32,000 bases of DNA from Sphingomonadales bacterium (GCA_027490095.1 JAIXYT010000038.1:77517-109516); one strand, 5' to 3'; counted from the stretch's first letter, positions 12,384 through 32,000 are shown. Translations and numbers: made by a program. Notes: generated by a model not told the origin, from the letters alone.

Positions 12384-12504
12384 GTCGTCGGACGGGTTCG
12401 TCGGCCTTAGGGCCTCCGCCCCGCCGGCCGTGCCGTCGGCGAGTCTGCGGACCTTCCCGCGATTGCTGCGCAATCCCGGTCCAGGCCGCAGCCGCCTATC
12501 GTGC

Positions 12505-21050: not shown

Positions 21051-21593
21051 ATGAGCGAGAGTTTGACCTGGCACGGCACGACCATCCTTGGCGTGCGCAA
21101 GGATGGCCGGGTGGTGGTGGCCGGCGATGGGCAGGTGAGCCTGGGCCAGACCGTGATCAAGCCCAACGCGAAGAAGGTCCGCCGGCTGGGTGCGGACGGC
21201 CGGGTGGTGGGCGGCTTTGCCGGTTCGACCGCCGACGCCTTCACCCTGTTCGAGCGGCTGGAGGCGAAGCTGGAGCGCTATCCCGGCCAGCTGACGCGCG
21301 CCTGCGTGGAGCTGGCGAAGGACTGGCGGCAGGACCGGTATCTCAGGCGGCTGGAGGCGATGATGATCGTGGCCGACGCCGAGACCATGCTGATCCTGAC
21401 CGGCACCGGGGATGTGCTGGAGCCGACCGACGGGGTCGCCGCAATCGGCTCGGGCGGCAATTATGCGCTGGCGGCCGCCCGGGCGCTGATCGACACCGAT
21501 GCCGACGCGGAAGCCATTGCCCGCAAGGCGATGGGGATCGCGGCCGACATCTGCGTCTACACCAACACCAATCTGACCGTGGAAACCCTGTGA
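21051..21593 (+). CDS. hslV: ATP-dependent protease subunit HslV
   Basis: 180 aa. The catalytic Thr follows [27 protein letters not shown], with [10 protein letters not shown] and [14 protein letters not shown]. Confidence 0.97.
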
Positions 21594-22924
21594 TGGATGC
21601 TGTGACAAACCCTGTGCCCGGTGGCTTCGACACCCTGACGCCCAAGGCCATCGTGGCCGCACTGGACCGCCACATCGTCGGGCAGACCGATGCCAAGAAG
21701 GCGGTTGCCGTGGCGCTGAGGAACCGCTGGCGGCGCCAGCAGCTGGCGCCTGAGCTGCGCGACGAGGTGAACCCGAAGAACATCCTGATGATCGGGCCGA
21801 CGGGCTGCGGGAAGACGGAGATCAGCCGGCGGCTGGCGAAGCTGGCGGACGCGCCCTTCCTGAAGATCGAGGCGACCAAGTTCACCGAAGTCGGCTATGT
21901 CGGCCGCGACGTGGATTCGATCATCCGCGACCTGGTCGAGGAATCGATCCGCCTGACCCGCGAGCTGCGCCGCGAAAGCGTGCGCGAGGCCGCCGAGAAG
22001 GCCGCGCTCGACCGGCTGCTCGACGCGCTGGTGGGCAAGGATTCGAGCGAGGCGACGCGCCTGGCCTTTCGCGACCGCATCTTTGCGGGTCAGCTGAAAG
22101 GCAGGGAGGTCGACATCGAGGTGGAGGACACGGGCGGCCAGATGCCGTTCGAGGTGCCCGGCATGCCCGGAAGCATGCAGATGATCAACCTGGGCGACAT
22201 GCTGAAGGGCGCGATGGGCAAGCGGATGAAGCGCCGCAAGATGCCCGTGGAGGACGCCTGGGAGCTGCTGGTGAACGAGGAGAGCGACAAGAGGCTCGAC
22301 ACCGATGACCTGACGCGCGAGGCGGTGAAGAACGCCGAGGCCAACGGCATCGTGTTCCTGGACGAGATCGACAAGATCGCCGTCTCGGATGTGCGGGGCG
22401 GCAGCGTTTCGCGTGAGGGCGTGCAGCGCGACCTGCTGCCGCTGATCGAGGGCACGACGGTTGCGACCAAATATGGCCCGGTGAAGACCGACCATATCCT
22501 CTTCATCGCGTCGGGCGCCTTCCATGTGGCGAAGCCCGCCGACCTGCTGCCGGAGCTGCAGGGGCGGCTGCCGATCCGCGTGGAGCTGAAGGGGCTGTCG
22601 AAGGCCGACTTCATCCGCATCCTGTCCGACACCGAGGCCTCGCTGACGCGGCAGTATATCGCGCTGATGGCGACCGAGGGGGTGGAGTTGTCTTTCACGG
22701 AGGACGGGATCGCGGCGGTCGCCGACATTGCGGCGCAGGTGAACGACCGGGTGGAGAATATCGGCGCGCGGCGGCTGCAGACGGTGATGGAGAAGCTGCT
22801 GGAGGAGCTGAGCTACGAGGCGGCCGATGGCGGCCCGCGGGCGCTGGTGGTGGATGCGGCCTATGTGGAAAAGCAGCTCGCCGCGATCGCGCGGGACAAC
22901 GACCTGTCGAAGTTCATCCTGTAG
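21593..22924 (+). CDS. hslU: ATP-dependent protease ATPase subunit HslU
   Basis: 443 aa. The ATG overlaps the hslV TGA (TGATG). [17 protein letters not shown], Walker [11 protein letters not shown], and [10 protein letters not shown]. The longer ORF from 20942 is an artefactual extension. Confidence 0.97.
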
Positions 22925-22941: not shown

Positions 22942-24372
22942 CTATTCCGCCGCCGCCCGGAGCGCCGGCGTCTCGAGCGCCCAGCCGCCGTCGGGGAAGA
23001 AGCCGCTGCCCTTGTCGCTGGAGAGTGCCGCCCAGGCTTCGCGGACGATCGCCCGGTCGAGCTCGCGCGTTGCCTCGGTCAGCTCGGCATAGGGCTTGAG
23101 GTCTGGGTGGATGCGCCGGGCGTTGTCGCGCGCCGGGCCCGGCCGCCAGCCGGACAGGGTGCGGTCCATCATCCAGCGCCGATGTTCCAGCTCGGCGAGG
23201 CGTTCGAGCAGATCCGGGTCTGAATCGAGGCTGGGCAGCGGGATTCCGCCTGTCGCGCTGGTGGGCGGCAGCGGCCGCCGAAGCCAGGCTGCGACGTCGA
23301 CTCCGGCGCTTGCGAGCTTGGCCGGCAGGTGCACGAGCTGGCGGCGGTTGGATTCGCGGAACTCCTCGGGCAGCCGCTCCCATTCGATGTTGGCGGGCGC
23401 GTCGGAGGGAGCTGTTCGCCGATAGGCCTCGTGGAACATCTGCGGCAGTGCATCGAAGTCCGGATCGAAGAGCCCGATTGCGGCCGCGAAGTCGGCGGTT
23501 GCGCCGAACTGCACAAGGCCTGCGACCTCGCCGTCCCTGGGCGCCTCGGGAAGCGCGCCGCCATGCACCAGCCGGGTGAAGATGGGGCCCATGGCCCAGC
23601 CTTCGCGGCGTGCGACGGCTTGCAGGGAGACTGCGAGCGCCATCGCCCTCAGGTCCTCGTCGATTGCGACATAGGCGAGCGTGAAGGGGTCTTCGGACTG
23701 GGCCAGCGCGAGCGCGTTCGTGGGCAGCAGCCGCACATCGGACACAAGCTCCGGGTCGATCAACTCGATGTCGACGGTTTCGGAGAGGCCGGGGCAGCGC
23801 TGGAACAGGCTGGCCCGGATCTCGCGGGCGCGCGGATCCACGATCGTCACCCGCGGCTTGCCGAGGAAGCTGGTGAGCGAGGAGAGCAGCAGGTCGGTCA
23901 GCACCGCCTCGCCGCCGCGGCCCAGCCCGAAGATCAGCGCATGGAGCCGCCGATGCCCGAGCCGGCGGGCGATGAGGAAGGGCGGAATGCGCCAGTGCAG
24001 CGCCCGGACCGACAGCTGGACCTGGCTGACGAAGCGGACGCCCTGGATATTCTCCAGCTCGTCCATCCGCTCGGCGAACCAGGCGTCGGCGAAGTTCATG
24101 ACGATCGGCAGCCGCGGCGACACCGCCCTGAGCGCGCGGACGGCGGCGACCTGCTGCACCTCGTTGCGGAAGGCGACGACCGCACGCGCGGCATGGTTCG
24201 CGGCGAAGCTTGTCGCAAGCGAAGGTTCCCACCGCTTGGGCACGATCAGCGCGCCCGGGATCGGCAGGGCCTCTTCCTCGGCATTGGAGATCCAGGTGAC
24301 GGTTGCCGCGCGGGCGGCGGCGGCCTCGGTCACGCCCCGGGCGACGCCATGGTCGCCGACCACCAGCAGATG
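22942..24372 (-). repeat. diverged direct repeat, copy A (paralogous coding DNA shared with 28481..29887)
   Basis: Residues 117-592 of paralogue A align collinearly with residues 25-492 of paralogue B. By hand count, 113 of 163 residues are identical over the C-terminal block. Nucleotide similarity is visible (for example GGGAAGAAGCCGCTGCC.., GATCGCCCGGTCGAGCTCGCG, CCAGCGNCGATGTTCCAGCTCGGC). Confidence 0.85.
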
Positions 24373-24720
24373 CCCGCGCCGATAGCGGCCGAACATCCGG
24401 CTGGCGTGGGTGGACAGGAGGGCGAGCACGGCCTTGGTCGCGGCCACCACGAAGGCGATCGCGCCCAGCACGCGGGCCGTATCGATCCGCCAGTCCTGGT
24501 TGTACCGTTCGGAGAAGGCATAGAGGTTGGACAGCGTGACCGCGTGCAGCGAATGGTAGAGCACGTCGAGCCAGGTGAGGTTCAGCGCCGCGGCCTGGGC
24601 ATGCCAGCCCCAGATCGCGAAGCCGATCGCGGCGATCGCAAGCGTCGGCAACAGCACAGTCAGGTTCAGGAATCGCCGCATGCCCTCGACTGCTTCCTTC
24701 AGGGTGAACGGCTGCCCCAT
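22942..24720 (-). CDS. membrane protein: 2-TM channel-like module, two RCK-N/TrkA-N-like Rossmann domains and C-terminal RyR-type repeats (paralogue A)
   Basis: 592 aa. Residues 1-110 read TM, then WLDVLYHSLHAVTLSNLY, then TM. Rossmann 1 is HLLVVGDHGVARG (degenerate) and Rossmann 2 is LHALIFGLGRGGEAVL (intact GxGxxG). The C-terminal LAELEHRRWMMDRTLSGWRPGPARDNARRIHPDLKPYAELTEATRELDRAIVREAW matches the RyR-domain signature. It lies 61 bp downstream of the SLC13 gene on the same strand. Confidence 0.8.
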   Translation of the reverse strand: MGQPFTLKEAVEGMRRFLNLTVLLPTLAIAAIGFAIWGWHAQAAALNLTWLDVLYHSLHAVTLSNLYAFSERYNQDWRIDTARVLGAIAFVVAATKAVLALLSTHASRMFGRYRRGHLLVVGDHGVARGVTEAAAARAATVTWISNAEEEALPIPGALIVPKRWEPSLATSFAANHAARAVVAFRNEVQQVAAVRALRAVSPRLPIVMNFADAWFAERMDELENIQGVRFVSQVQLSVRALHWRIPPFLIARRLGHRRLHALIFGLGRGGEAVLTDLLLSSLTSFLGKPRVTIVDPRAREIRASLFQRCPGLSETVDIELIDPELVSDVRLLPTNALALAQSEDPFTLAYVAIDEDLRAMALAVSLQAVARREGWAMGPIFTRLVHGGALPEAPRDGEVAGLVQFGATADFAAAIGLFDPDFDALPQMFHEAYRRTAPSDAPANIEWERLPEEFRESNRRQLVHLPAKLASAGVDVAAWLRRPLPPTSATGGIPLPSLDSDPDLLERLAELEHRRWMMDRTLSGWRPGPARDNARRIHPDLKPYAELTEATRELDRAIVREAWAALSSDKGSGFFPDGGWALETPALRAAAE

Positions 24721-24781
24721 GCCCGACCTGCCGCCCCAATGGCCACAGGAAAAGCGGTCGCGCCGGTCGGACTGCCCGGGC

Positions 24782-26593
24782 CTAGAAGGGCCAGACCACC
24801 GGCACCCAGAAGACGCTGACCACGAAGAACATCGCCATCATGCAGATGCCGAGCTTCCAGTAGTCGCTGAACTTGTAGCCGCCCGGGCCCATGACCATCA
24901 GGTTCACCGGCGTTGCGATGGGCGTGAGGAAGGCGGCTGCGCAGGCGACGTTCACGCTCATCAGCACGGGCGTCACGTTCACGCCCATGGTGCCGGCCGC
25001 GAGCACGGCCACCGGGATCACGATGAGGGCGGTCGCGGTGTTGGAGATCACCTGGCCGAGCACGGCGGAAATCACGAACAGCCCGATCAGCAGCGCGCGC
25101 GGGCTGTTGTCGCCCAGGAGCTCAACCAGATTGTCGGCGAGAAGCTGGGCAGCGCCCGTCTGGAACATGGCGGTCGACAGCGGCATCATGGCGCCGACCA
25201 GGATGATCGTCGTCCAGTTGATCGCGCGGTAGGCCTCTTCCACCTTCAAGAGGCCCGTCAGGATCACGGCGCCCGCTGCGATCAGGCCGGCGATGGCGGG
25301 CTGCACCAGGTTGAAGGCCAGCATCGCAACCATGCCCAGGAGGATCAGGATGGCGGCCTTCGCGCCCAGCCCCAGCGGGACGGCCTGCTTGCGCACGACG
25401 GCCGGGCTGTCCACCACCAGCACCGCGGGATCCGCGAGGTGGGTTTCGAGCGCCTGCCAGCTGCCCTGCATCAGAAGCGTGTCGCCGGCCGCGAGCTTGT
25501 GGCTGCCGGGCCCCAGCGCCTCGCCTGCGCGTTCCACGGCCAGCACGACAAGGTCTCCGGAAGCGGCGGTCATCCCCGGGAAGGCGGTCTCTCCCACCAG
25601 CCGTGAGCGCGGCGGGATCACCACCTCGGCGAGGCCCGAATTGCGGTTGAACAGCGTGTCCCCGATGTCGCCATCGCCGCTGCCGAGCACGGCGAGATCG
25701 TGGCGCTCGGCAAAGGCCGCGACCATGTCAGCCGGCCCCGATACGATCAGGGAATGGCCGGGCGCTAGCGGGGTATCCGCCGCCACTGCCTCGCCCGCAT
25801 CGGTCTTGCCGCGCGCCAGCACCAGGCCGGGATAGGCCGACGTGTCGATATCTGCCGCTGTCTTGCCGACGCAGGCCGAGCCCTCGCGCAGCTTCAGCTG
25901 GAACCAGCGACCGCTCAGTCGATACTGCTCTGTCAGCGTGCGCGCGTGGGCGGAGAAGTCCGCCGGCAGCGACGGCCCCTGGGTGTAGGGCAGCAGCCTG
26001 GGCCCGAGAAAGTAGACGATGGCGATCCCGCCGATGACCAGCGGAAGGCCCGACCAGGCGAATTCGAAGAAGCCGAACGGCTCGCCGCCCGCATCCTGGA
26101 GCGCATCGTTCACGATGACGGCGATCGGGGTGCCCGAGAGGGTGAGCTTGGAGCCCGTGTGGGCCCCGAAGGCAAGCGGCATCAGCAGCTGGGAGGGCGC
26201 CGTGCCGGTGCGGATGGCCAGCACCACGACCACGGGCAGCAGCGCTGCGACCGCGCCGTTCACGCTGATGAGGGCGGTGAGCACGGCGACCATCAGCATC
26301 ATCAGCACCAGAAGCCTGCCGCGCCCTTCATCGCCGGCCCAGTCGATCAGCTTCTGCCCGGCCCAGGCGGTCACGCCCGCCGCCTCGAGGCCTGCCGACA
26401 CCACGAACAGGCTGGCGATGAAGATGATGGTCGGGTCGCCGAAGCCCGAGAACACCTCCTGCAGGGACAGAACGCCGGTCAGGTAGAGTGCCAGCGGAAC
26501 GAGCAGTGCGACAATCACGACAGGGAGCCTGTTCTGCACGAACAGGATCACGGCGCCCACGATGATCAGGAAGACGATGGTGATGTCGCTCAA
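24782..26593 (-). CDS. SLC13/DASS-family permease with two central TrkA-C (RCK_C) domains
   Basis: 603 aa. N- and C-terminal polytopic halves typical of SLC13/CitT-like permeases. The central soluble region holds two RCK_C-like repeats (..WFQLKLREGSACVGKTAADI..GHSLIVSG.. and ..LAEVVIPPRSRLVGETAF..GDTLLMQG..). Confidence 0.9.
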   Translation of the reverse strand: MSDITIVFLIIVGAVILFVQNRLPVVIVALLVPLALYLTGVLSLQEVFSGFGDPTIIFIASLFVVSAGLEAAGVTAWAGQKLIDWAGDEGRGRLLVLMMLMVAVLTALISVNGAVAALLPVVVVLAIRTGTAPSQLLMPLAFGAHTGSKLTLSGTPIAVIVNDALQDAGGEPFGFFEFAWSGLPLVIGGIAIVYFLGPRLLPYTQGPSLPADFSAHARTLTEQYRLSGRWFQLKLREGSACVGKTAADIDTSAYPGLVLARGKTDAGEAVAADTPLAPGHSLIVSGPADMVAAFAERHDLAVLGSGDGDIGDTLFNRNSGLAEVVIPPRSRLVGETAFPGMTAASGDLVVLAVERAGEALGPGSHKLAAGDTLLMQGSWQALETHLADPAVLVVDSPAVVRKQAVPLGLGAKAAILILLGMVAMLAFNLVQPAIAGLIAAGAVILTGLLKVEEAYRAINWTTIILVGAMMPLSTAMFQTGAAQLLADNLVELLGDNSPRALLIGLFVISAVLGQVISNTATALIVIPVAVLAAGTMGVNVTPVLMSVNVACAAAFLTPIATPVNLMVMGPGGYKFSDYWKLGICMMAMFFVVSVFWVPVVWPF

Positions 26594-26664
26594 GCGGCAG
26601 GCTCCCCCCTCGGGTTTGGGGCACGCTGGGGCAAGCCGCCCCGCAAATCAACTGTGGCGGCCGG

Positions 26665-26693
26665 TTGACAGCAGGCGCGAAAGGGGCTGCTCT
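26665..26693 (+). promoter_or_regulatory. possible sigma-70-type promoter of the AbgT gene
   Basis: Perfect -35 TTGACA at 26665-26670. The -10 element 17 nt downstream is only weak (TGCTCT). The ORF-track TTG start coincides with this hexamer and is probably not a start codon. Confidence 0.3.
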
Positions 26694-26721
26694 GTGCTCC
26701 GGGAGAATTGGGGGAGAGCGA

Positions 26722-28284
26722 ATGGCGGAGGCCGAAAGCCCGCGAACCGGCATGGACCGCCTGCTCGACGTGATCGAGCGCGTGGGCAACAAGGTGCCGC
26801 ACCCGGCGGTGATCTTCCTGGTGATGATCGGCGTGGTGATCCTGGCTTCGGTCATCATGTCGGCGTTCGGCGCCGCGGTGACGCTGGAAACGGCCGGTGC
26901 CGACGGCGCGGTGACCCGGCAGGTGGTGGCGGTGCGCAGCCTGCTGTCGACCGAGGGCGTCCGCTTCATGCTGACGAGCTGGGTCGACAATTTCATGGCC
27001 TTCTCTGCGACCGGCATGATCCTCGTCGCGATGGTGGGGGTGGGCGTTGCCGAGCAGACCGGCCTTGTCGCGGCGCTCATTCGCAAGATCGTCGCCGTGA
27101 CGCCACCGTCGCTCATCACCTTCGTGATCGTGCTTCTGGGCGGGCTGTCCTCGGTTGCGGCGGACGCCGGCTATGTCGTCCTCATCCCGCTCGGCGCCAT
27201 GGCCTTCCTGAGTCTCGGCCGGCACCCGCTGGCGGGCATTGCGGCGGCCTTTGCCGGGGTGTCGGCGGTGTTCGGGGTGAATGTCCTCATCACCCCGCTG
27301 GATGGGGCGCTGACCGAGATCACCAACGACGCGATCGCGCTTGTCCGCCCCGGCACCACGCTCGACCTGACGGCGACCATGTGGTTTTCGACCGTCAGCC
27401 TGGTGCTGATGTCGGCGCTGTGTGCGTGGATCACCGAAAAGAAGGTGGAGCCGCACCTTGGCACCTATGATCCGGCCGACGCCGGCCCGGTTGCAGCTGC
27501 GGGCACGACTGCGGAGGACTGTGCGACGAAGCAGGCGCCCGAGGACGAGGCGCGCGGGCTTCGCTGGGCGTTGTGGGCGCTGATCGCGTTCATCGCCTTT
27601 GTGGTGGCGCTGAGCTGGGGCGAGGGCGCGGTGTTCCGCAACCCCGAGACGGGGTCGCTGATTTCCGACAGCCCGCTGATGAAGGGGCTGATCGTGCTGG
27701 TGGCCTTGCTGTTCCTGGCGGTGGGCGCAGCCTATGGCGCGGGCGCCGGCACGCTGAAGAGCGTGTCGGAGGCGATCGGCATGATCGACAAGGCCTTCAA
27801 GGGGATGGGTCCGCTGATCTTCCTGTTCCTGGTGATCGCCCAGTTCCTGGCCTTCTTCGGCTTCACGAACATTGCGACGGTGCTTGCGGTGAACATGGCC
27901 GACGCGCTGGTTGCGGCCAATCTGGGCTCCGTCACCCTGATCCTGGGCTTCGTGGCCGCTATCCTCGTGCTCGACATATTGATGCCGGGCGCCATTCCGA
28001 AATGGGCGATCTTCGCGCCCATCTTCATTCCGCTGTTCATCCAGCTGGGGAGCGACCCTGCGACGGTGCTTGCGGCCTATCGGGTGGCGGATTCGCCGAT
28101 GAACGTGATCACGCCGCTGATGGGCTATTTCCCGCTGATCGTGATCTTCTGCCAGCAATATGTGAAGGATGCGGGTGTCGGCACGGTGATTGCGATGATG
28201 CTGCCCTACACGCTGTGGCTGGTGCCGATCTGGACCGCGATCCTGGTGGGCTGGTACATGTTGCAGCTGCCCTGGGGGTTCTGA
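26722..28284 (+). CDS. AbgT-family transporter (p-aminobenzoyl-glutamate / MtrF-type)
   Basis: ATG at 26722 after GGGGGAGAG. The N-terminus LLDVIERVGNKVPHPAVIFLVMIG matches the AbgT signature (ERIGNKVPHP), and the protein is polytopic throughout. Confidence 0.9.
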   Translation: MAEAESPRTGMDRLLDVIERVGNKVPHPAVIFLVMIGVVILASVIMSAFGAAVTLETAGADGAVTRQVVAVRSLLSTEGVRFMLTSWVDNFMAFSATGMILVAMVGVGVAEQTGLVAALIRKIVAVTPPSLITFVIVLLGGLSSVAADAGYVVLIPLGAMAFLSLGRHPLAGIAAAFAGVSAVFGVNVLITPLDGALTEITNDAIALVRPGTTLDLTATMWFSTVSLVLMSALCAWITEKKVEPHLGTYDPADAGPVAAAGTTAEDCATKQAPEDEARGLRWALWALIAFIAFVVALSWGEGAVFRNPETGSLISDSPLMKGLIVLVALLFLAVGAAYGAGAGTLKSVSEAIGMIDKAFKGMGPLIFLFLVIAQFLAFFGFTNIATVLAVNMADALVAANLGSVTLILGFVAAILVLDILMPGAIPKWAIFAPIFIPLFIQLGSDPATVLAAYRVADSPMNVITPLMGYFPLIVIFCQQYVKDAGVGTVIAMMLPYTLWLVPIWTAILVGWYMLQLPWGF

Positions 28285-28383
28285 TGAAGGCGGCCGCCGT
28301 CAGTGCGCAGCGCTGATCGGCGGACTCGCCGCAATCACGGACGGCGGGGCGTCGGCCCGCAGGCCGGCGAACCCGTCCGACGA

Positions 28384-28420
28384 GTCCGGCTTGGCCGGAC
28401 CCCTCTTTCCTTCTGGTTTC
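28384..28420 (+). terminator. candidate intrinsic terminator downstream of the AbgT gene
   Basis: 7-bp stem GTCCGGC/GCCGGAC with loop TTG, followed by the pyrimidine-rich CCCTCTTTCCTTCTGGTTTC. Confidence 0.4.
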
Positions 28421-28480
28421 AGAACCAAGCGGAGAGGGCAGGCTTCGCCTGACCCCCGCGAATTTGGCCGACTTTCCCCC

Positions 28481-29887
28481 CTAGCCCTTCGCTACGCGCT
28501 GCATGGCCCCGCCGTGGGGGAAGAAGCCGCTGCCCCGCGATGTGCCGAGCGTTTCCCAGGCCTCGCGCACGATCGCCCGGTCGAGCTCGCGGGTGTATTC
28601 GTCGAGCGCTTCGTAGGGGACGAGGTCGGGGTGGTGGCGCGCGTCGTTGTCGCGCACCGGGCCGTAGTGCCAGCCTGAAAGGCGCCGATCGACCATCCAG
28701 CGGCGATGTTCCAGCTCGGCCATCGTTTCCATCAGCGCGGGGTCGGCCTCGAGGTCGGGCAGCGGGATGCCGCCGGCCTCGTTGGTCACCGGGAGGGGTG
28801 TCCGGAGCCAGGCGGCGAGGTCCACCTTGGCCGTCAGCAGCTTCGCCGGCAGGTGCACGAGGAGGCGCCGGTTGGATTCGCGAAACTCTTCCGAAAGCTC
28901 TTCCCAGGGGCAGTTCGCCGGCGTGCCGGGGCGGGCGGTTCGCCGGTACGTTTCGTGGAACATGCGGGCGAGCAGGTCGATGTCGGGGTCGAACAGGCCG
29001 ATCGCTTCGGCGAAGTCGGCATTGGCCCCGAACATCAGCAGCTCGGCCGGTTCGTCGGTGACGGGAAGGCGCGGCAACTCGCCGCCGCCGGCCTGGCGCA
29101 CGAAGACCGGGCCCATCTGCCAGCGCTCCCGCGTGGCCAGCGCGTGGAAGGCGCGGGCCAGCGCCAGCGCGCGGACGTCGGCGTCGATCGACACATGGGC
29201 GAAGGTGAAGGGGTCTTCGGCGGCTGCGGCGAGCAGTGCGTCTGCAGGGATATGGCGTGGATCGTCGACGTCGCCCGCCTCGACGAAATGGATTTCGGCG
29301 GATTGGCCGATTTCCGGACAGCGGCGGAGCAGGTCGTCGCGCACCTCGGCAGCGCGGCGGTCGACGATCGTGATGCGCGGGGTGTCGAGATAGCCGGTCA
29401 GGCCGCAGAGCAGCAGGTCGGTCAGGATGCAGTCGCCGCCCCGGCCGAAGCCGAAGAGCAGGGCGTGGATGCGCGCATGGCCGAGGTTGCGGGCGATGAG
29501 CGGCGGCGGGTTGCGCCAGTGGAGGTCGCGCACGGCGAGCTGCACCTGGCTGACGAAGCGGACGTTCGAAAGCCCCGCCGTCTCGTTGCCGCGATCGGCG
29601 AACCAGCTGTCGGTGAAATTCACCATGATCGGCAGGGACGGGGCCCTGGCGCGCAGCGCCTCGACCGCCGGGATCTGCCGGGTCTCGTCGGCGAAGGCGA
29701 CAATTGCGCGTGCCGCGGTTGCCGCATGGCCGGCGTGCTGTGCGCCCCAGGGGGCCGCCACCAGCTCGACCCCGGGCATGGGGTTTGCCACCCTGCCGTT
29801 GGTGATCCAGGTGACGGGGGCATTGCGGCGCGCGGCGGCGGCAACCACGCCATCGGCAAGTGGATGGTCGCCGACCACCAGCAGATG
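28481..29887 (-). repeat. diverged direct repeat, copy B (paralogous to 22942..24372)
   Basis: See copy A. Same orientation, with the two copies 5.5 kb apart. Confidence 0.85.
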
Positions 29888-29959
29888 GTCGTGCAGCAGA
29901 TCCGGCGTGCCGGCACTGCCTGTGTCGGCCACGGTGTGGGAAACGCGCGTCACACCCAT
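28481..29959 (-). CDS. soluble paralogue B: two RCK-N-like Rossmann domains and RyR-type repeats, lacking the 2-TM module
   Basis: 492 aa. HLLVVGDHPLADG, IHALLFGFGRGGDCIL, and a C-terminal MAELEHRRWMVDRRLSGWHYGPVRDNDARHHPDLVPYEALDEYTRELDRAIVREAW. It lies 106 bp downstream of dnaJ on the same strand. Confidence 0.8.
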   Translation of the reverse strand: MGVTRVSHTVADTGSAGTPDLLHDHLLVVGDHPLADGVVAAAARRNAPVTWITNGRVANPMPGVELVAAPWGAQHAGHAATAARAIVAFADETRQIPAVEALRARAPSLPIMVNFTDSWFADRGNETAGLSNVRFVSQVQLAVRDLHWRNPPPLIARNLGHARIHALLFGFGRGGDCILTDLLLCGLTGYLDTPRITIVDRRAAEVRDDLLRRCPEIGQSAEIHFVEAGDVDDPRHIPADALLAAAAEDPFTFAHVSIDADVRALALARAFHALATRERWQMGPVFVRQAGGGELPRLPVTDEPAELLMFGANADFAEAIGLFDPDIDLLARMFHETYRRTARPGTPANCPWEELSEEFRESNRRLLVHLPAKLLTAKVDLAAWLRTPLPVTNEAGGIPLPDLEADPALMETMAELEHRRWMVDRRLSGWHYGPVRDNDARHHPDLVPYEALDEYTRELDRAIVREAWETLGTSRGSGFFPHGGAMQRVAKG

Positions 29960-30065: not shown

Positions 30066-31202
30066 CTAGTCGGTGAGCTCGTCCCAGGCGCCCTTCAGCC
30101 GATCCCAGAAGCCCTTGGACTTCGGGCAAGCCTCGTGCGGGTTCTCGGTGCCGCGGAATTCCTCCAGCAGCTCCTTCTGGCGGGGGGACAGTTTCGTGGG
30201 CGTCTCCAGCTCCACCTGCACCACCAGATCGCCGATGCCGTGGCCGTTCAGCGCCGGCATGCCCCGCCCGCGCACCCGGAACTGGCGGCCCGACTGGGTG
30301 CCGGCCGGCACCTTCACGTCCACGGGCTGCTTGTCGAGCCCGGGGATCTGCAGGTCGCCGCCGAGCGCCGCGTCGACGAAGCTCATGGGCACCTGTGCGA
30401 ACAGGGTGGTGCCGTCGCGCTTCCAGATGGGGTGGGGCTTCATGTGGACGAAGATGTAGAGGTCGCCGGGCGCCCCGCCGCGCGGGCCGGATTCGCCTTC
30501 GTTGGCGAGGCGGATCCGGGTGCCGTCGTCGACGCCCTTCGGGATCTTGACCTTCAGCTGCTTGGCACGCTCCACCCGGCCTTCGCCATGGCAGTGGCCG
30601 CAGGGATCGGAGATGACCTGGCCCGAGCCGTGGCAGGTGGGGCAGGTGCGCTCCACGATGAACATGCCGTTCTGCATGCGCACCTGGCCGCGGCCGCTGC
30701 AGGTGCTGCAGGCCTGGACGCGGGCACCGGGCTTGGCGCCCGTGCCGGCGCAATGATCGCAGGCCACGGCGACATCCAGCGCGATGTCGGCCTCGGCGCC
30801 GTGGAAGGCGTCTTCGAAGCTGACCTGGAGATCATAGCGGATGTCGGCACCGCGCTGTGGGCCCTGGCGCCGCCCGCGGGGACTTCCGCCCATGAACTGG
30901 TCGAAGATGTCGGAGAAGATGTCGGAAAAGGGCGATGCATCCTGGAAGGGACTGCCGCCGCCGCCGGCTCCGCCCTTGAAGGCGGCATGGCCGTAGCGAT
31001 CGTAGGCGGCGCGCTTGTCCGGATCCGACAGCACGCCATAGGCTTCGCTGATCGCCTTGAAGCGGGCCTCGGCTGCCTGGTCGCCGGGGTTGCGGTCCGG
31101 GTGCCAGCGCATGGCGAGCTTGCGATAGGCGGACTTGAGGGTCGCGTCGTCCGCGCCCTTTTCCACTTCCAGCAGCTCGTAATAGTCGATCTCGGCGTGC
31201 AT
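30066..31202 (-). CDS. dnaJ: molecular chaperone DnaJ
   Basis: 378 aa. J domain (DYYELLEVEKGADDATLKSAYRKLAMRWHPDRNPG), a Gly-rich linker and four CxxCxGxG zinc-finger repeats. Confidence 0.97.
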   Translation of the reverse strand: MHAEIDYYELLEVEKGADDATLKSAYRKLAMRWHPDRNPGDQAAEARFKAISEAYGVLSDPDKRAAYDRYGHAAFKGGAGGGGSPFQDASPFSDIFSDIFDQFMGGSPRGRRQGPQRGADIRYDLQVSFEDAFHGAEADIALDVAVACDHCAGTGAKPGARVQACSTCSGRGQVRMQNGMFIVERTCPTCHGSGQVISDPCGHCHGEGRVERAKQLKVKIPKGVDDGTRIRLANEGESGPRGGAPGDLYIFVHMKPHPIWKRDGTTLFAQVPMSFVDAALGGDLQIPGLDKQPVDVKVPAGTQSGRQFRVRGRGMPALNGHGIGDLVVQVELETPTKLSPRQKELLEEFRGTENPHEACPKSKGFWDRLKGAWDELTD

Positions 31203-31259: not shown

Positions 31260-32000
31260 TTACTTCTTGCTGTCGTCCACTTCGGTGAAGTCGGCATCGA
31301 CGACATCGTCGGCCGGCTTCGCCTCGGCGGTGTCGGCGGATGCGCCCTCGGCCTTCGCCGTTTCGGCGGCATAGACCGCTTCGCCGAGCTTCATCGCCAC
31401 CTGCGCGAGTGTCTGCGCCTTGGGCGTGATCTGGTCGGCGTCGCCCGAATCGAGCACCGCCTTCACATCGGCAATCGCCGTCTCGATGGCGGTCTTCGTC
31501 TCGGCGTCCACCTTGTCGCCATGCTCGGAAAGCTGGCGCTCGGTCGCGTGCACCAGGCTGTCGGCCTGGTTGCGGGCCTCGGCGGCCTCGCGGCGCTTCT
31601 TGTCTTCCGACGAGAACTGCTCGGCCTCCTTCACCATCTTCTCGATGTCGTCCTTCGAAAGGCCGCCCGAGGGCTGGATCCGGATCTGCTGCTCCTTGCC
31701 GGTGCCCTTGTCCTTCGCGTTCACGGCGACGAGGCCGTTGGCGTCGATGTCGAAGGTGACCTCGATCTGCGGCACGCCGCGCGGCGCCGCCGGGATGCCG
31801 ACGAGGTCGAACTGGCCCAGCATCTTGTTGTCGGCCGCCATCTCGCGTTCGCCCTGGAAGACGCGGATGGTGACGGCCGACTGGTTGTCGTCGGCGGTGC
31901 TGAAGGTCTGCGACTTCTTGGTCGGGATGGTCGTGTTGCGGTCTATCATGCGGGTGAACACGCCACCCAGCGTCTCGATGCCCAGCGACAGCGGGGTCAC
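31260..32000 (-). CDS. dnaK: molecular chaperone DnaK, C-terminal part (5' end outside the window)
   Basis: Substrate-binding and lid region [58 protein letters not shown], with an acidic tail ..[12 protein letters not shown]. Confidence 0.97.

Follow-up and report, generated by a model that had tools for sequence, protein, structure and literature searches.

Two RyR-domain paralogs with a predicted RCK-type fold beside dnaKJ in a Sphingomonadales bacterium

RESULTS AND DISCUSSION

Gene content of the locus

The window analyzed here is a stretch of 32,000 nucleotides from a Sphingomonadales bacterium (GCA_027490095.1, JAIXYT010000038.1:77517-109516). It carries two diverged paralogous genes, A and B, that bracket a divergent pair of transporter genes between hslVU and dnaKJ (Table 1). 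This gene order, given in the initial annotation, was confirmed by the list of open reading frames (ORFs) and by profile searches. Both paralogs contain a C-terminal RyR domain, which that annotation had lacked, preceded by two Rossmann lobes of predicted RCK type, and A has in addition an N-terminal membrane part. Loci of relatives are denoted below by L and homologous proteins by P, each with a number.

TABLE 1 Genes and features of the locus, with the domains of paralogs A and B (aa, amino acids; TM, transmembrane helix)
Feature	Position in window	Strand	Remarks
hslV	21051-21593	+	NCBIfam equivalog above cut-off; flanking context, outside the paralog system
hslU	21593-22924	+	NCBIfam equivalog above cut-off; flanking context, outside the paralog system
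Paralog A	22942-24720	-	592 aa, intact ORF
A residues 423-567	23020-23454	-	RyR Repeat12-like domain, two half-repeats (FHEAYRR..., LAELEHRRW...)
A residues 258-415	23476-23949	-	Rossmann lobe 2; intact dinucleotide-binding signature GLGRGG 265-270, TIVD 292-295
A residues 117-254	23959-24372	-	Rossmann lobe 1, RCK-N-like; degenerate glycine motif GDHGVARG, crossover helices
A residues 17-111	24388-24672	-	TM1, short pore-helix-like helix 50-62, loop, TM2 (hydropathy, DSSP, family alignment, Foldseek)
CitMHS/DASS-type permease	24782-26593	-	603 aa; two internal TrkA_C domains; 61 bp upstream of A
AbgT-family transporter	26722-28284	+	520 aa from ATG 26722; divergent from permease
AbgT-B intergenic region	28285-28480	.	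Hairpin, then T-rich tract; sequence inspection
Paralog B	28481-29959	-	492 aa, intact ORF; starts 106 bp downstream of dnaJ
B domains			Rossmann 1, 25-159; Rossmann 2, 163-320 (GFGRGG 170-175, TIVD 197-200); RyR R12-like, 328-471
dnaJ	30066-31202	-	PRK10767, 527 vs 338 bits; TIGR02349, 427 vs 377 bits (both above cut-off)
dnaK, 3' part	31260-32000 (window end)	-	331 vs 648 bits, below NCBIfam cut-off

Both paralogs carry an RyR domain with conserved pocket residues

The Pfam model RyR (PF02026; gathering score, 27.4) matches residues 503 to 563 of A (E 1.5e-12, 48 bits) and residues 408 to 471 of B (E 3e-14, 53.5 bits). Sequence searches of the PDB with phmmer and hmmsearch matched only the repeats of RyR1/2/3 and an RyR-domain protein of Bacteroides thetaiotaomicron, and the family profile matched RyR1/2/3 with E about 1e-30. 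NCBIfam and PADLOC gave no match for A or B. At the level of structure, Foldseek aligned the models of both proteins with Repeat12 (R12) of RyR3 (205 aa) over ~170 to 190 columns, with TMt of about 0.45 to 0.5 and 24 to 28% identity. The models suggest the two-repeat, pseudosymmetric clamp of R12, with a divergent first half-repeat.

The corresponding cleft of RyR1 (RY12) binds ADP/ATP, with W882 stacking on the adenine and R886, R897, and H904 among the basic residues of the pocket (PMC13642953). These four residues align with W516, R520, R531, and H538 of A (offset, 366 residues), which are invariant or at least 90% conserved across an 80-member family alignment and have equivalents in B. 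The dinucleotide signature of lobe 2 is found in both paralogs as well, G265 and G270 being invariant and D295 nearly invariant in the same alignment. Since the RY12 pocket residues are kept, and since phage RyR-domain proteins (RyDEP) bind or cleave 2'/3' cyclic ADP-ribose (cADPR) (PMC13232231), an adenine- or NAD-derived ligand can reasonably be inferred from the sequences of A and B.

A further arrangement of RyR-like repeats was seen in a Gemmatimonadota locus (L061:7886-10507), where the product of the gene upstream of a family member is 873 aa long, has a P-loop ATPase motif, and itself contains two RyR-like repeats (LARAAHEVYREGL...; LAEMEHDRWMRAKIAAGWRW).

The predicted fold of A resembles that of the GsuK channel

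Paralog A was modeled with AlphaFold2 on the 80-sequence family alignment, and folds were compared with the PDB by Foldseek. The model is confident, with a predicted local distance difference test score (pLDDT) of 89.5 and a predicted template modeling score (pTM) of 0.84. It comprises a helix at residues 20 to 46, a short helix at 50 to 62, a loop, and a long helix at 77 to 111, followed by lobe 1 at 118 to 232 with crossover helices to 254, lobe 2 at 260 to 414, and a helical/hairpin domain at 424 to 567. The best match is the GsuK channel (4GX0/4GX5), over ~520 to 530 aligned columns, and the next matches are the TrkA gating ring, full-length MthK, KtrA, and ATP/ADP-bound RyR3 Repeat12. GsuK is described as a multi-ligand-gated K+ channel of Geobacter sulfurreducens that is activated by ADP and NAD+ (PMC3510474). 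The model of B (pLDDT, 85.2; pTM, 0.85) has the same cytoplasmic architecture behind a predicted disordered stretch at residues 1 to 20. Its best matches by template modeling score (TM-score) and root mean square deviation (rmsd) are the GsuK ring (TM 0.40/0.50, rmsd about 5 A), TrkA, KtrA (TMt 0.70), Slo1, and RyR3 R12.

Hydropathy analysis revealed two hydrophobic segments in A (about residues 17 to 40 and 82 to 106) and none in B, in agreement with the earlier proposal that one copy is membrane anchored and the other soluble. The TM1-short helix-TM2 topology of A, seen by hydropathy and in the model, is conserved family-wide in the N-terminal alignment. A TVGYG-type K+ filter was absent from A; the corresponding positions vary across the family and read TLSNLY in A and FDINN in the Caulobacterales members. 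Because this filter is lacking, A is not classed as a K+ channel, and its membrane part may be a nonselective pore or only an anchor. Paralog A is thus predicted from its model to be of GsuK-like build, with two TM helices round a pore-helix-like segment, two RCK-type Rossmann lobes, and an RyR Repeat12-homologous domain, and B is the same protein minus the membrane part.

As annotated, A has 13 residues (MGQPFTLKEAVEG; window 24682-24720) ahead of the Met-Arg-Arg with which most homologs start. The true start may therefore be Met14 (ATG 24679-24681), giving a protein of 579 aa.

A and B are diverged, intact paralogs

The initial annotation had described A and B as collinear, diverged paralogs, and BLASTP bears this out, with 276 of 463 residues identical (60%; E 4e-179) between A117-579 and B25-484. 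Its count of 113 identities among 163 C-terminal residues was reproduced exactly for A417-579. Nucleotide identity is 66%. Gene conversion or chimerism between the two copies was considered and ruled out: sliding-window identity is flat, with no homogenized tract, and the longest identical run, of only 24 nucleotides, indicates that no recent conversion has taken place.

Decay of one copy into a pseudogene would have undermined the proposals made for this locus. Both ORFs are, however, intact, and the ratio of nonsynonymous to synonymous substitution rates (dN/dS) against the closest ortholog is low (A, 0.078; B, 0.080), so neither is a pseudogene. Ratios against more distant orthologs range from 0.15 to 0.35. 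Both copies are under purifying selection.

Relatives suggest how the two copies came to be separated

Five arrangements of the locus were found in relatives. The first, dnaK-dnaJ-B-AbgT(-)-CitMHS(+)-hslU-hslV, has B only (L002, L003, L010, L011, L016, L092, and L143, with Sandaracinobacter neustonicus among L011/L016). The second, dnaJ-B-A-AbgT-CitMHS-hslU, has both copies in tandem (L004, L166, and L167/L168, with A orthologs of 83%, 71%, and 83% identity). The third, in which the transporter pair splits B from A as in the window, is confined to contigs with an A that is 95% identical. The fourth has a single long form at the dnaJ/AbgT junction (L005 and L170). The fifth has no RyR-family gene (L172, from Sandaracinobacteroides hominis, and L174); here tblastn found no remnant of A or B, and L172 reads hslV-hslU-small ORF-CitMHS-AbgT-176 bp-dnaJ-dnaK. 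All A-clade genes found are accompanied by B, and B occurs without A in seven loci. Other long-form paralogs lie elsewhere, beside an SDR gene (L001, L006, L007, and L171) or beside rbfA (L169).

The CitMHS-hslU gaps of B-only loci (0.2 to 0.8 kb; L011, L016, L092, L010, L002, and L143) were examined as a possible site of A remnants and have no similarity to A or B. A conserved ORF of 59 aa (MAQDFVRHRQPWKPDELAKLRTLAAKGMGLKAIAKAL...), with a weak HTH_38 match (E 1e-3), lies between CitMHS and hslU in L011:15150-15970, L016:15000-15670, L092:7085-7860, and L172:6672-6851; it is absent from the window, which has A there. In L143 (BBPD01000025.1; 9404-10160), AbgT is down to two short fragments, with dnaKJ-B-CitMHS-hslUV kept. 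The L143 assembly also holds a separate long form on another contig (L088).

A neighbor-joining tree of the shared core places the short forms in a single clade nested among long forms and sister to the clade of A and P0001-P0004. About 45 bp upstream of A (TTTTCC..TGGCCA..GGGC-ATG) are common to the split and tandem loci, which indicates that A moved with its own upstream sequence. We therefore envisage a history in which a long-form gene would have been located between dnaJ and AbgT and duplicated in tandem, the upstream copy losing its 5' membrane-coding part to become B. The other copy, A, would later have been lost repeatedly, in several lineages. In the lineage of the window, A and the ~45 bp preceding it would have relocated past the AbgT/CitMHS pair to its other side, and it is this relocation that would give the picture of two paralogs bracketing the transporters. 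The architecture of the proteins and their duplication history are well supported, and the gene arrangement can be put down to ordinary events of duplication, truncation, loss, and relocation.

Proposed function of A and B

The architecture suggests a mechanism by analogy with known RCK proteins. The cytoplasmic part would sense adenine/NAD-type nucleotides at lobe 2 (GxGxxG...D) and at the RY12-like cleft (W516, R520, R531, and H538). It would form a ring, as in GsuK, MthK, and TrkA, and ligand-driven movement of this ring would gate the membrane part of A, probably a pore not selective for K+, given the missing TVGYG filter. B would make a soluble ring by itself, since it occurs in genomes with no detected long form, and may mix with long forms, where present, as a modulatory subunit. 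Because it lies just downstream of dnaKJ, B is plausibly expressed with the heat-shock operon, through a putative cotranscription with dnaKJ. A nucleotide-gated, channel-like A, a soluble B ring, and possible heat-shock coexpression are put forward tentatively, at close to an even chance at best. As an explanation of the locus overall, architecture, history, and mechanism together form the account that we judge best, and one slightly more probable than its negation.

Paralog B must be able to act alone, judging from the seven loci that have it without A and from S. neustonicus and two metagenome-assembled genomes, in which a pattern-based scan recovered no long form. A would not need B, because four chains of two lobes each can make up an eight-lobe ring, as they do in GsuK and TrkA. 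Mixed A-B rings may also form.

Several observations weigh against this account. The RCK likeness proposed in the initial annotation stands at the level of the fold, where GsuK, TrkA, KtrA, and MthK are the best structural matches, but finds no counterpart in Pfam: neither TrkA_N (PF02254) at E <= 0.1 nor Ion_trans_2 matched A or B. The RCK/channel assignment rests on the predicted fold, with whole-chain TM-scores of only 0.3 to 0.5, and the RCK C-terminal subdomain is absent from both lobes of the A and B models. The first half-repeat of the RyR region (FHEAYRR...PWE.L.EEFRESNRR) is shorter than its counterpart, has Tyr433 in the Trp position, and lacks the beta-hairpin. The pore-loop region varies and is poorly conserved across the family, so the membrane part of A may be an anchor only. 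Only the short form was recovered from S. neustonicus and the two metagenome-assembled genomes by a pattern-based scan, in which a divergent long form could be missed. As for the history, inversion was tried as the cause of the relocation of A, and neither a single inversion nor any pair of them yields the order seen. Finally, double-Rossmann enzymes of the dipicolinate synthase A type have low Foldseek E-values against B, with poor superposition.

These enzyme matches speak for a different explanation, in which A and B are nucleotide-binding sensors or enzymes rather than channel components and the helices of A are an anchor only. The activity could be that of a Rossmann dehydrogenase or another NAD-utilizing enzyme, or the RyR domain could act as an ADP-ribose glycosidase or sponge like RyDEP. 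The degenerate pore loop agrees with this, as do the phage RyR-domain proteins that are enzymes or sponges for cADPR isomers and the retention of a fully soluble B on its own in several genomes. However, the whole A chain, membrane part included, matches the GsuK and MthK channels, TM-score and rmsd strongly favor the gating rings of GsuK, TrkA, and KtrA over the enzymes, and the TM1-short helix-TM2 topology is kept family-wide. We regard this explanation as unlikely.

Among distant relatives, P0236, P0279, and P0295 have sub-threshold TrkA_N matches (E 9e-5 to 6e-4), which in P0236 and P0295 fall at the position equivalent to lobe 1, and P0085 is annotated with both TrkA_N and RyR. The occurrence of RyR beside TrkA_N is therefore already recorded by domain databases in some proteins. 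No paper on channel-like proteins of the RyR plus RCK kind encoded in bacterial chromosomes came up in the literature search, and we take the family to be an uncharacterized variant of RCK-regulated channel-like proteins with an RyR Repeat12-type sensor.

The transporters are conserved neighbors of the RyR-RCK genes

The AbgT-family transporter (Pfam ABG_transport, E 3e-139, 465 bits) and the permease (CitMHS, E 3.9e-94, 316 bits, with Na_sulph_symp and TrkA_C) are classed at the level of the Pfam family, both falling below the NCBIfam equivalog/subfamily cut-offs, and for this reason no substrate is assigned to either. The AbgT ORF opens at 26665; the ATG at 26722, preceded by GGGGGAGAG, gives the 520-aa length of relatives.

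The conserved core of the locus is dnaKJ plus the AbgT/CitMHS pair. The initial annotation had proposed a self-contained, four-gene transport and regulation module, which the comparison with relatives does not sustain: the pair beside dnaKJ carries zero, one, or two RyR-RCK genes, and the four genes are essentially not syntenic as a unit, the split order being found only in relatives of ~95% identity. The further suggestion of a block wedged between adjacent heat-shock operons fails too, since the link between dnaKJ and the transporters is older and since L170 and L174 have no hslVU on that side. With hslVU adjacency variable, the block is not an insertion between operons that were once adjacent. 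In L170, which lacks hslVU, the transporter pair is followed by an M20 peptidase gene (L170:13539-14663), which we take to recall AbgA/AbgB of E. coli abgABT.

A narrower form of the module idea would have an A/B hetero-oligomeric, RCK-like ring controlling AbgT and/or CitMHS, as in TrkA-TrkH and KtrA-KtrB. An RyR-RCK gene adjoins the transporter pair in about 17 loci, with protein divergence down to about 50 to 57%; the RCK-like fold is borne out by the models; and the lobes of A and B are all of RCK-N type, TrkA_C (RCK-C) domains being present in the permease, which could hint at complementation. Against this, S. hominis (L172) and L174 keep the pair beside dnaKJ with no RyR-family gene or remnant, so that a conserved partner membrane protein of the TrkH/KtrB style was not found for the family, and L143 retains B though AbgT is largely deleted. 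Most family members lie away from these transporters, among them the long forms of Polymorphobacter, L001, L169, and L171 and about 100 distant members. Neither paralog shares a facing promoter with a transporter: B follows dnaJ on the same strand and is convergent with AbgT, not co-oriented, and only in this lineage does A come after the permease, 61 bp away and in the same orientation. The seven loci with B but no A also speak against an obligatory A/B ring. As dnaKJ is equally syntenic, adjacency in so narrow a clade is weak evidence, and we consider control of the transporters by A and B very unlikely. The transporters are conserved neighbors of the RyR-RCK genes, not demonstrated partners.

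Distribution of the family and TIR-domain neighbors

A word-indexed search returned 85 clusters, all of them either unnamed or bearing an RyR annotation only. When 1.84 billion representatives were searched exhaustively with HMMER, 134 proteins matched at E <= 1e-30, most of them over the full length, and 2124 matched at E <= 1e-10. Scans of genomes and metagenomes found full-length members in Sphingomonadales (Sandaracinobacter, Polymorphobacter, and Qipengyuania), Caulobacterales, Hyphomonadaceae, Rhodobacterales, Devosia, and Granulosicoccaceae; matches in other phyla were C-terminal only.

Clustering of flanking ORFs revealed no universally conserved neighbor, only lineage-specific ones, namely an SDR gene, a TIR protein, and a protein with a weak DUF4231 match. 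The TIR neighbor, a membrane-anchored TIR_2 protein (Pfam E 1e-25), lies within 2 kb of distant full-length relatives in 21 loci, mostly of Caulobacterales, and in 14 of the 58 loci with enough flank; the orientation of its gene varies. These relatives are ~30 to 35% identical to A (L019, L023, L027, L031 [e.g., L031:8759-9892], L046, L048, L107, L112, L115, and others). Given the binding of cADPR-type TIR products by the RyR domain of RyDEP, a TIR-signal-gated channel is a lead in these lineages. In Granulosicoccaceae and other gammaproteobacterial loci (L012:7710-9995, L014:169-2259, and L015:7261-9603), the upstream gene encodes a membrane protein of 700 to 780 aa with a weak DUF4231 (SLATT-like) match (E 8e-4).

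These neighbors, together with the capacity of RyR domains to bind cADPR-type signals and the ion channel that serves as the Thoeris type X effector, could suggest that the family serves TIR-based (Thoeris-like) immune signaling as an effector and that the copies in the window are defense genes, yet this is highly improbable: the window has no TIR gene, PADLOC is silent for A, B, and the transporters, the locus is core chromosomal (dnaKJ and hslVU), is stable in synteny, and lacks mobile-element genes, the variable TIR orientation means that the neighborhood may reflect lineage synteny, and type X TIR sequences look unrelated to the TIR of Caulobacterales.

Flanking genes and intergenic elements

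The remaining genes of the window are ordinary chromosomal ones (purH, an EamA transporter, an SDR gene, aconitase, and a polysaccharide-synthesis protein), and the GC content is uniform at ~0.65 to 0.74 throughout, with no break at the block. The dnaK fragment scores under its cut-off because the window end truncates the gene. Within the clade, hrcA, grpE, dnaK, and dnaJ, and mostly also hslU and hslV, lie within ~12 to 14 kb (L002:3665-17227; L170:1612-7914; L172:4566-17039), an unusual density of heat-shock genes.

The hairpin between AbgT and B is a copy of a dispersed, terminator-like intergenic repeat of ~70 to 130 bp. Other copies are at 12385-12451 of the window and at L166:5690-5785, L002:15184-15264, and L172:10567-10741, as well as in L010, L085, and L143. 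In this genome and in relatives, the repeat is found again and again between convergent genes, downstream of AbgT, CitMHS, and aconitase; it follows CitMHS in L166, L002, and L010 and AbgT in L172. An element of ~100 bp downstream of AbgT, with a reverse match to the CitMHS-hslU spacer of relatives, had been considered as a trace of the rearrangement and proved to be this repeat. Being dispersed, it says nothing on the rearrangement. The scan for promoters and terminators was uninformative, with three terminator-like sites, all intragenic and fewer than the shuffled expectation, and no terminator-like site was seen in the dnaJ-B gap.

Significance and comparison with known systems

The interest of the locus lies in the protein family and not in the gene arrangement, which is not to be read as a new transport module. 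Work of 2025-2026 showed that the RyR Repeat12 domain senses ADP/ATP in RyR1 and RyR3 and that in phages it binds or hydrolyzes cADPR isomers. An RyR-RCK protein of the kind described here would be a small, tractable model for the coupling of RY12 nucleotide binding to gating, and loci with no copy, the long form only, the short form only, or both provide natural genetic controls for the soluble copy alone and in the company of the membrane copy. One may go further and picture the long form as a prokaryotic nucleotide-gated cation channel with an RY12-type sensor and an RCK ring, with B tuning the channel or buffering its ligand in heat stress and the members of Caulobacterales wired to the neighboring TIR enzyme. 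This extended picture is rather unlikely as a whole; if true, it would be a bacterial counterpart of the control of RyR-type channels by NAD-derived nucleotides.

Both transporters resemble known families: AbgT is an ordinary Pfam member of the family of E. coli abgABT, MtrF, and YdaH, with no M20 peptidase in the window, and the permease is an ordinary Pfam member of the DASS/CitMHS permeases with TrkA_C domains. The closest likeness of A is to GsuK (PDB 4GX0/4GX5), which likewise has a two-TM domain followed by two tandem RCK domains in a single chain. A differs in lacking the TVGYG filter and the RCK C-terminal subdomains and in having the extra RyR Repeat12-like domain, and sequence identity is only 13 to 16%. 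For B, precedent is provided by MthK, TrkA, and KtrA, in which soluble RCK proteins complete or form the ring. The soluble RCK subunits of MthK come from an internal start codon, whereas here the soluble form has a gene of its own, a diverged paralog. The proposed B ring would resemble TrkA, a soluble tetramer of tandem-RCK chains, although, unlike for TrkA and KtrA, no TrkH or KtrB partner lies near A or B. The RyR domain is shared with the B. thetaiotaomicron RyR-domain protein (3NRT/6UAG) and phage RyDEP, which are small, stand-alone proteins in contrast to the fusions found in A and B. With Repeat12 of RyR1 itself, the paralogs have in common the adenine-stacking Trp and the basic residues of the pocket, fused here to an RCK-type, channel-like protein instead of a giant Ca2+-release channel.

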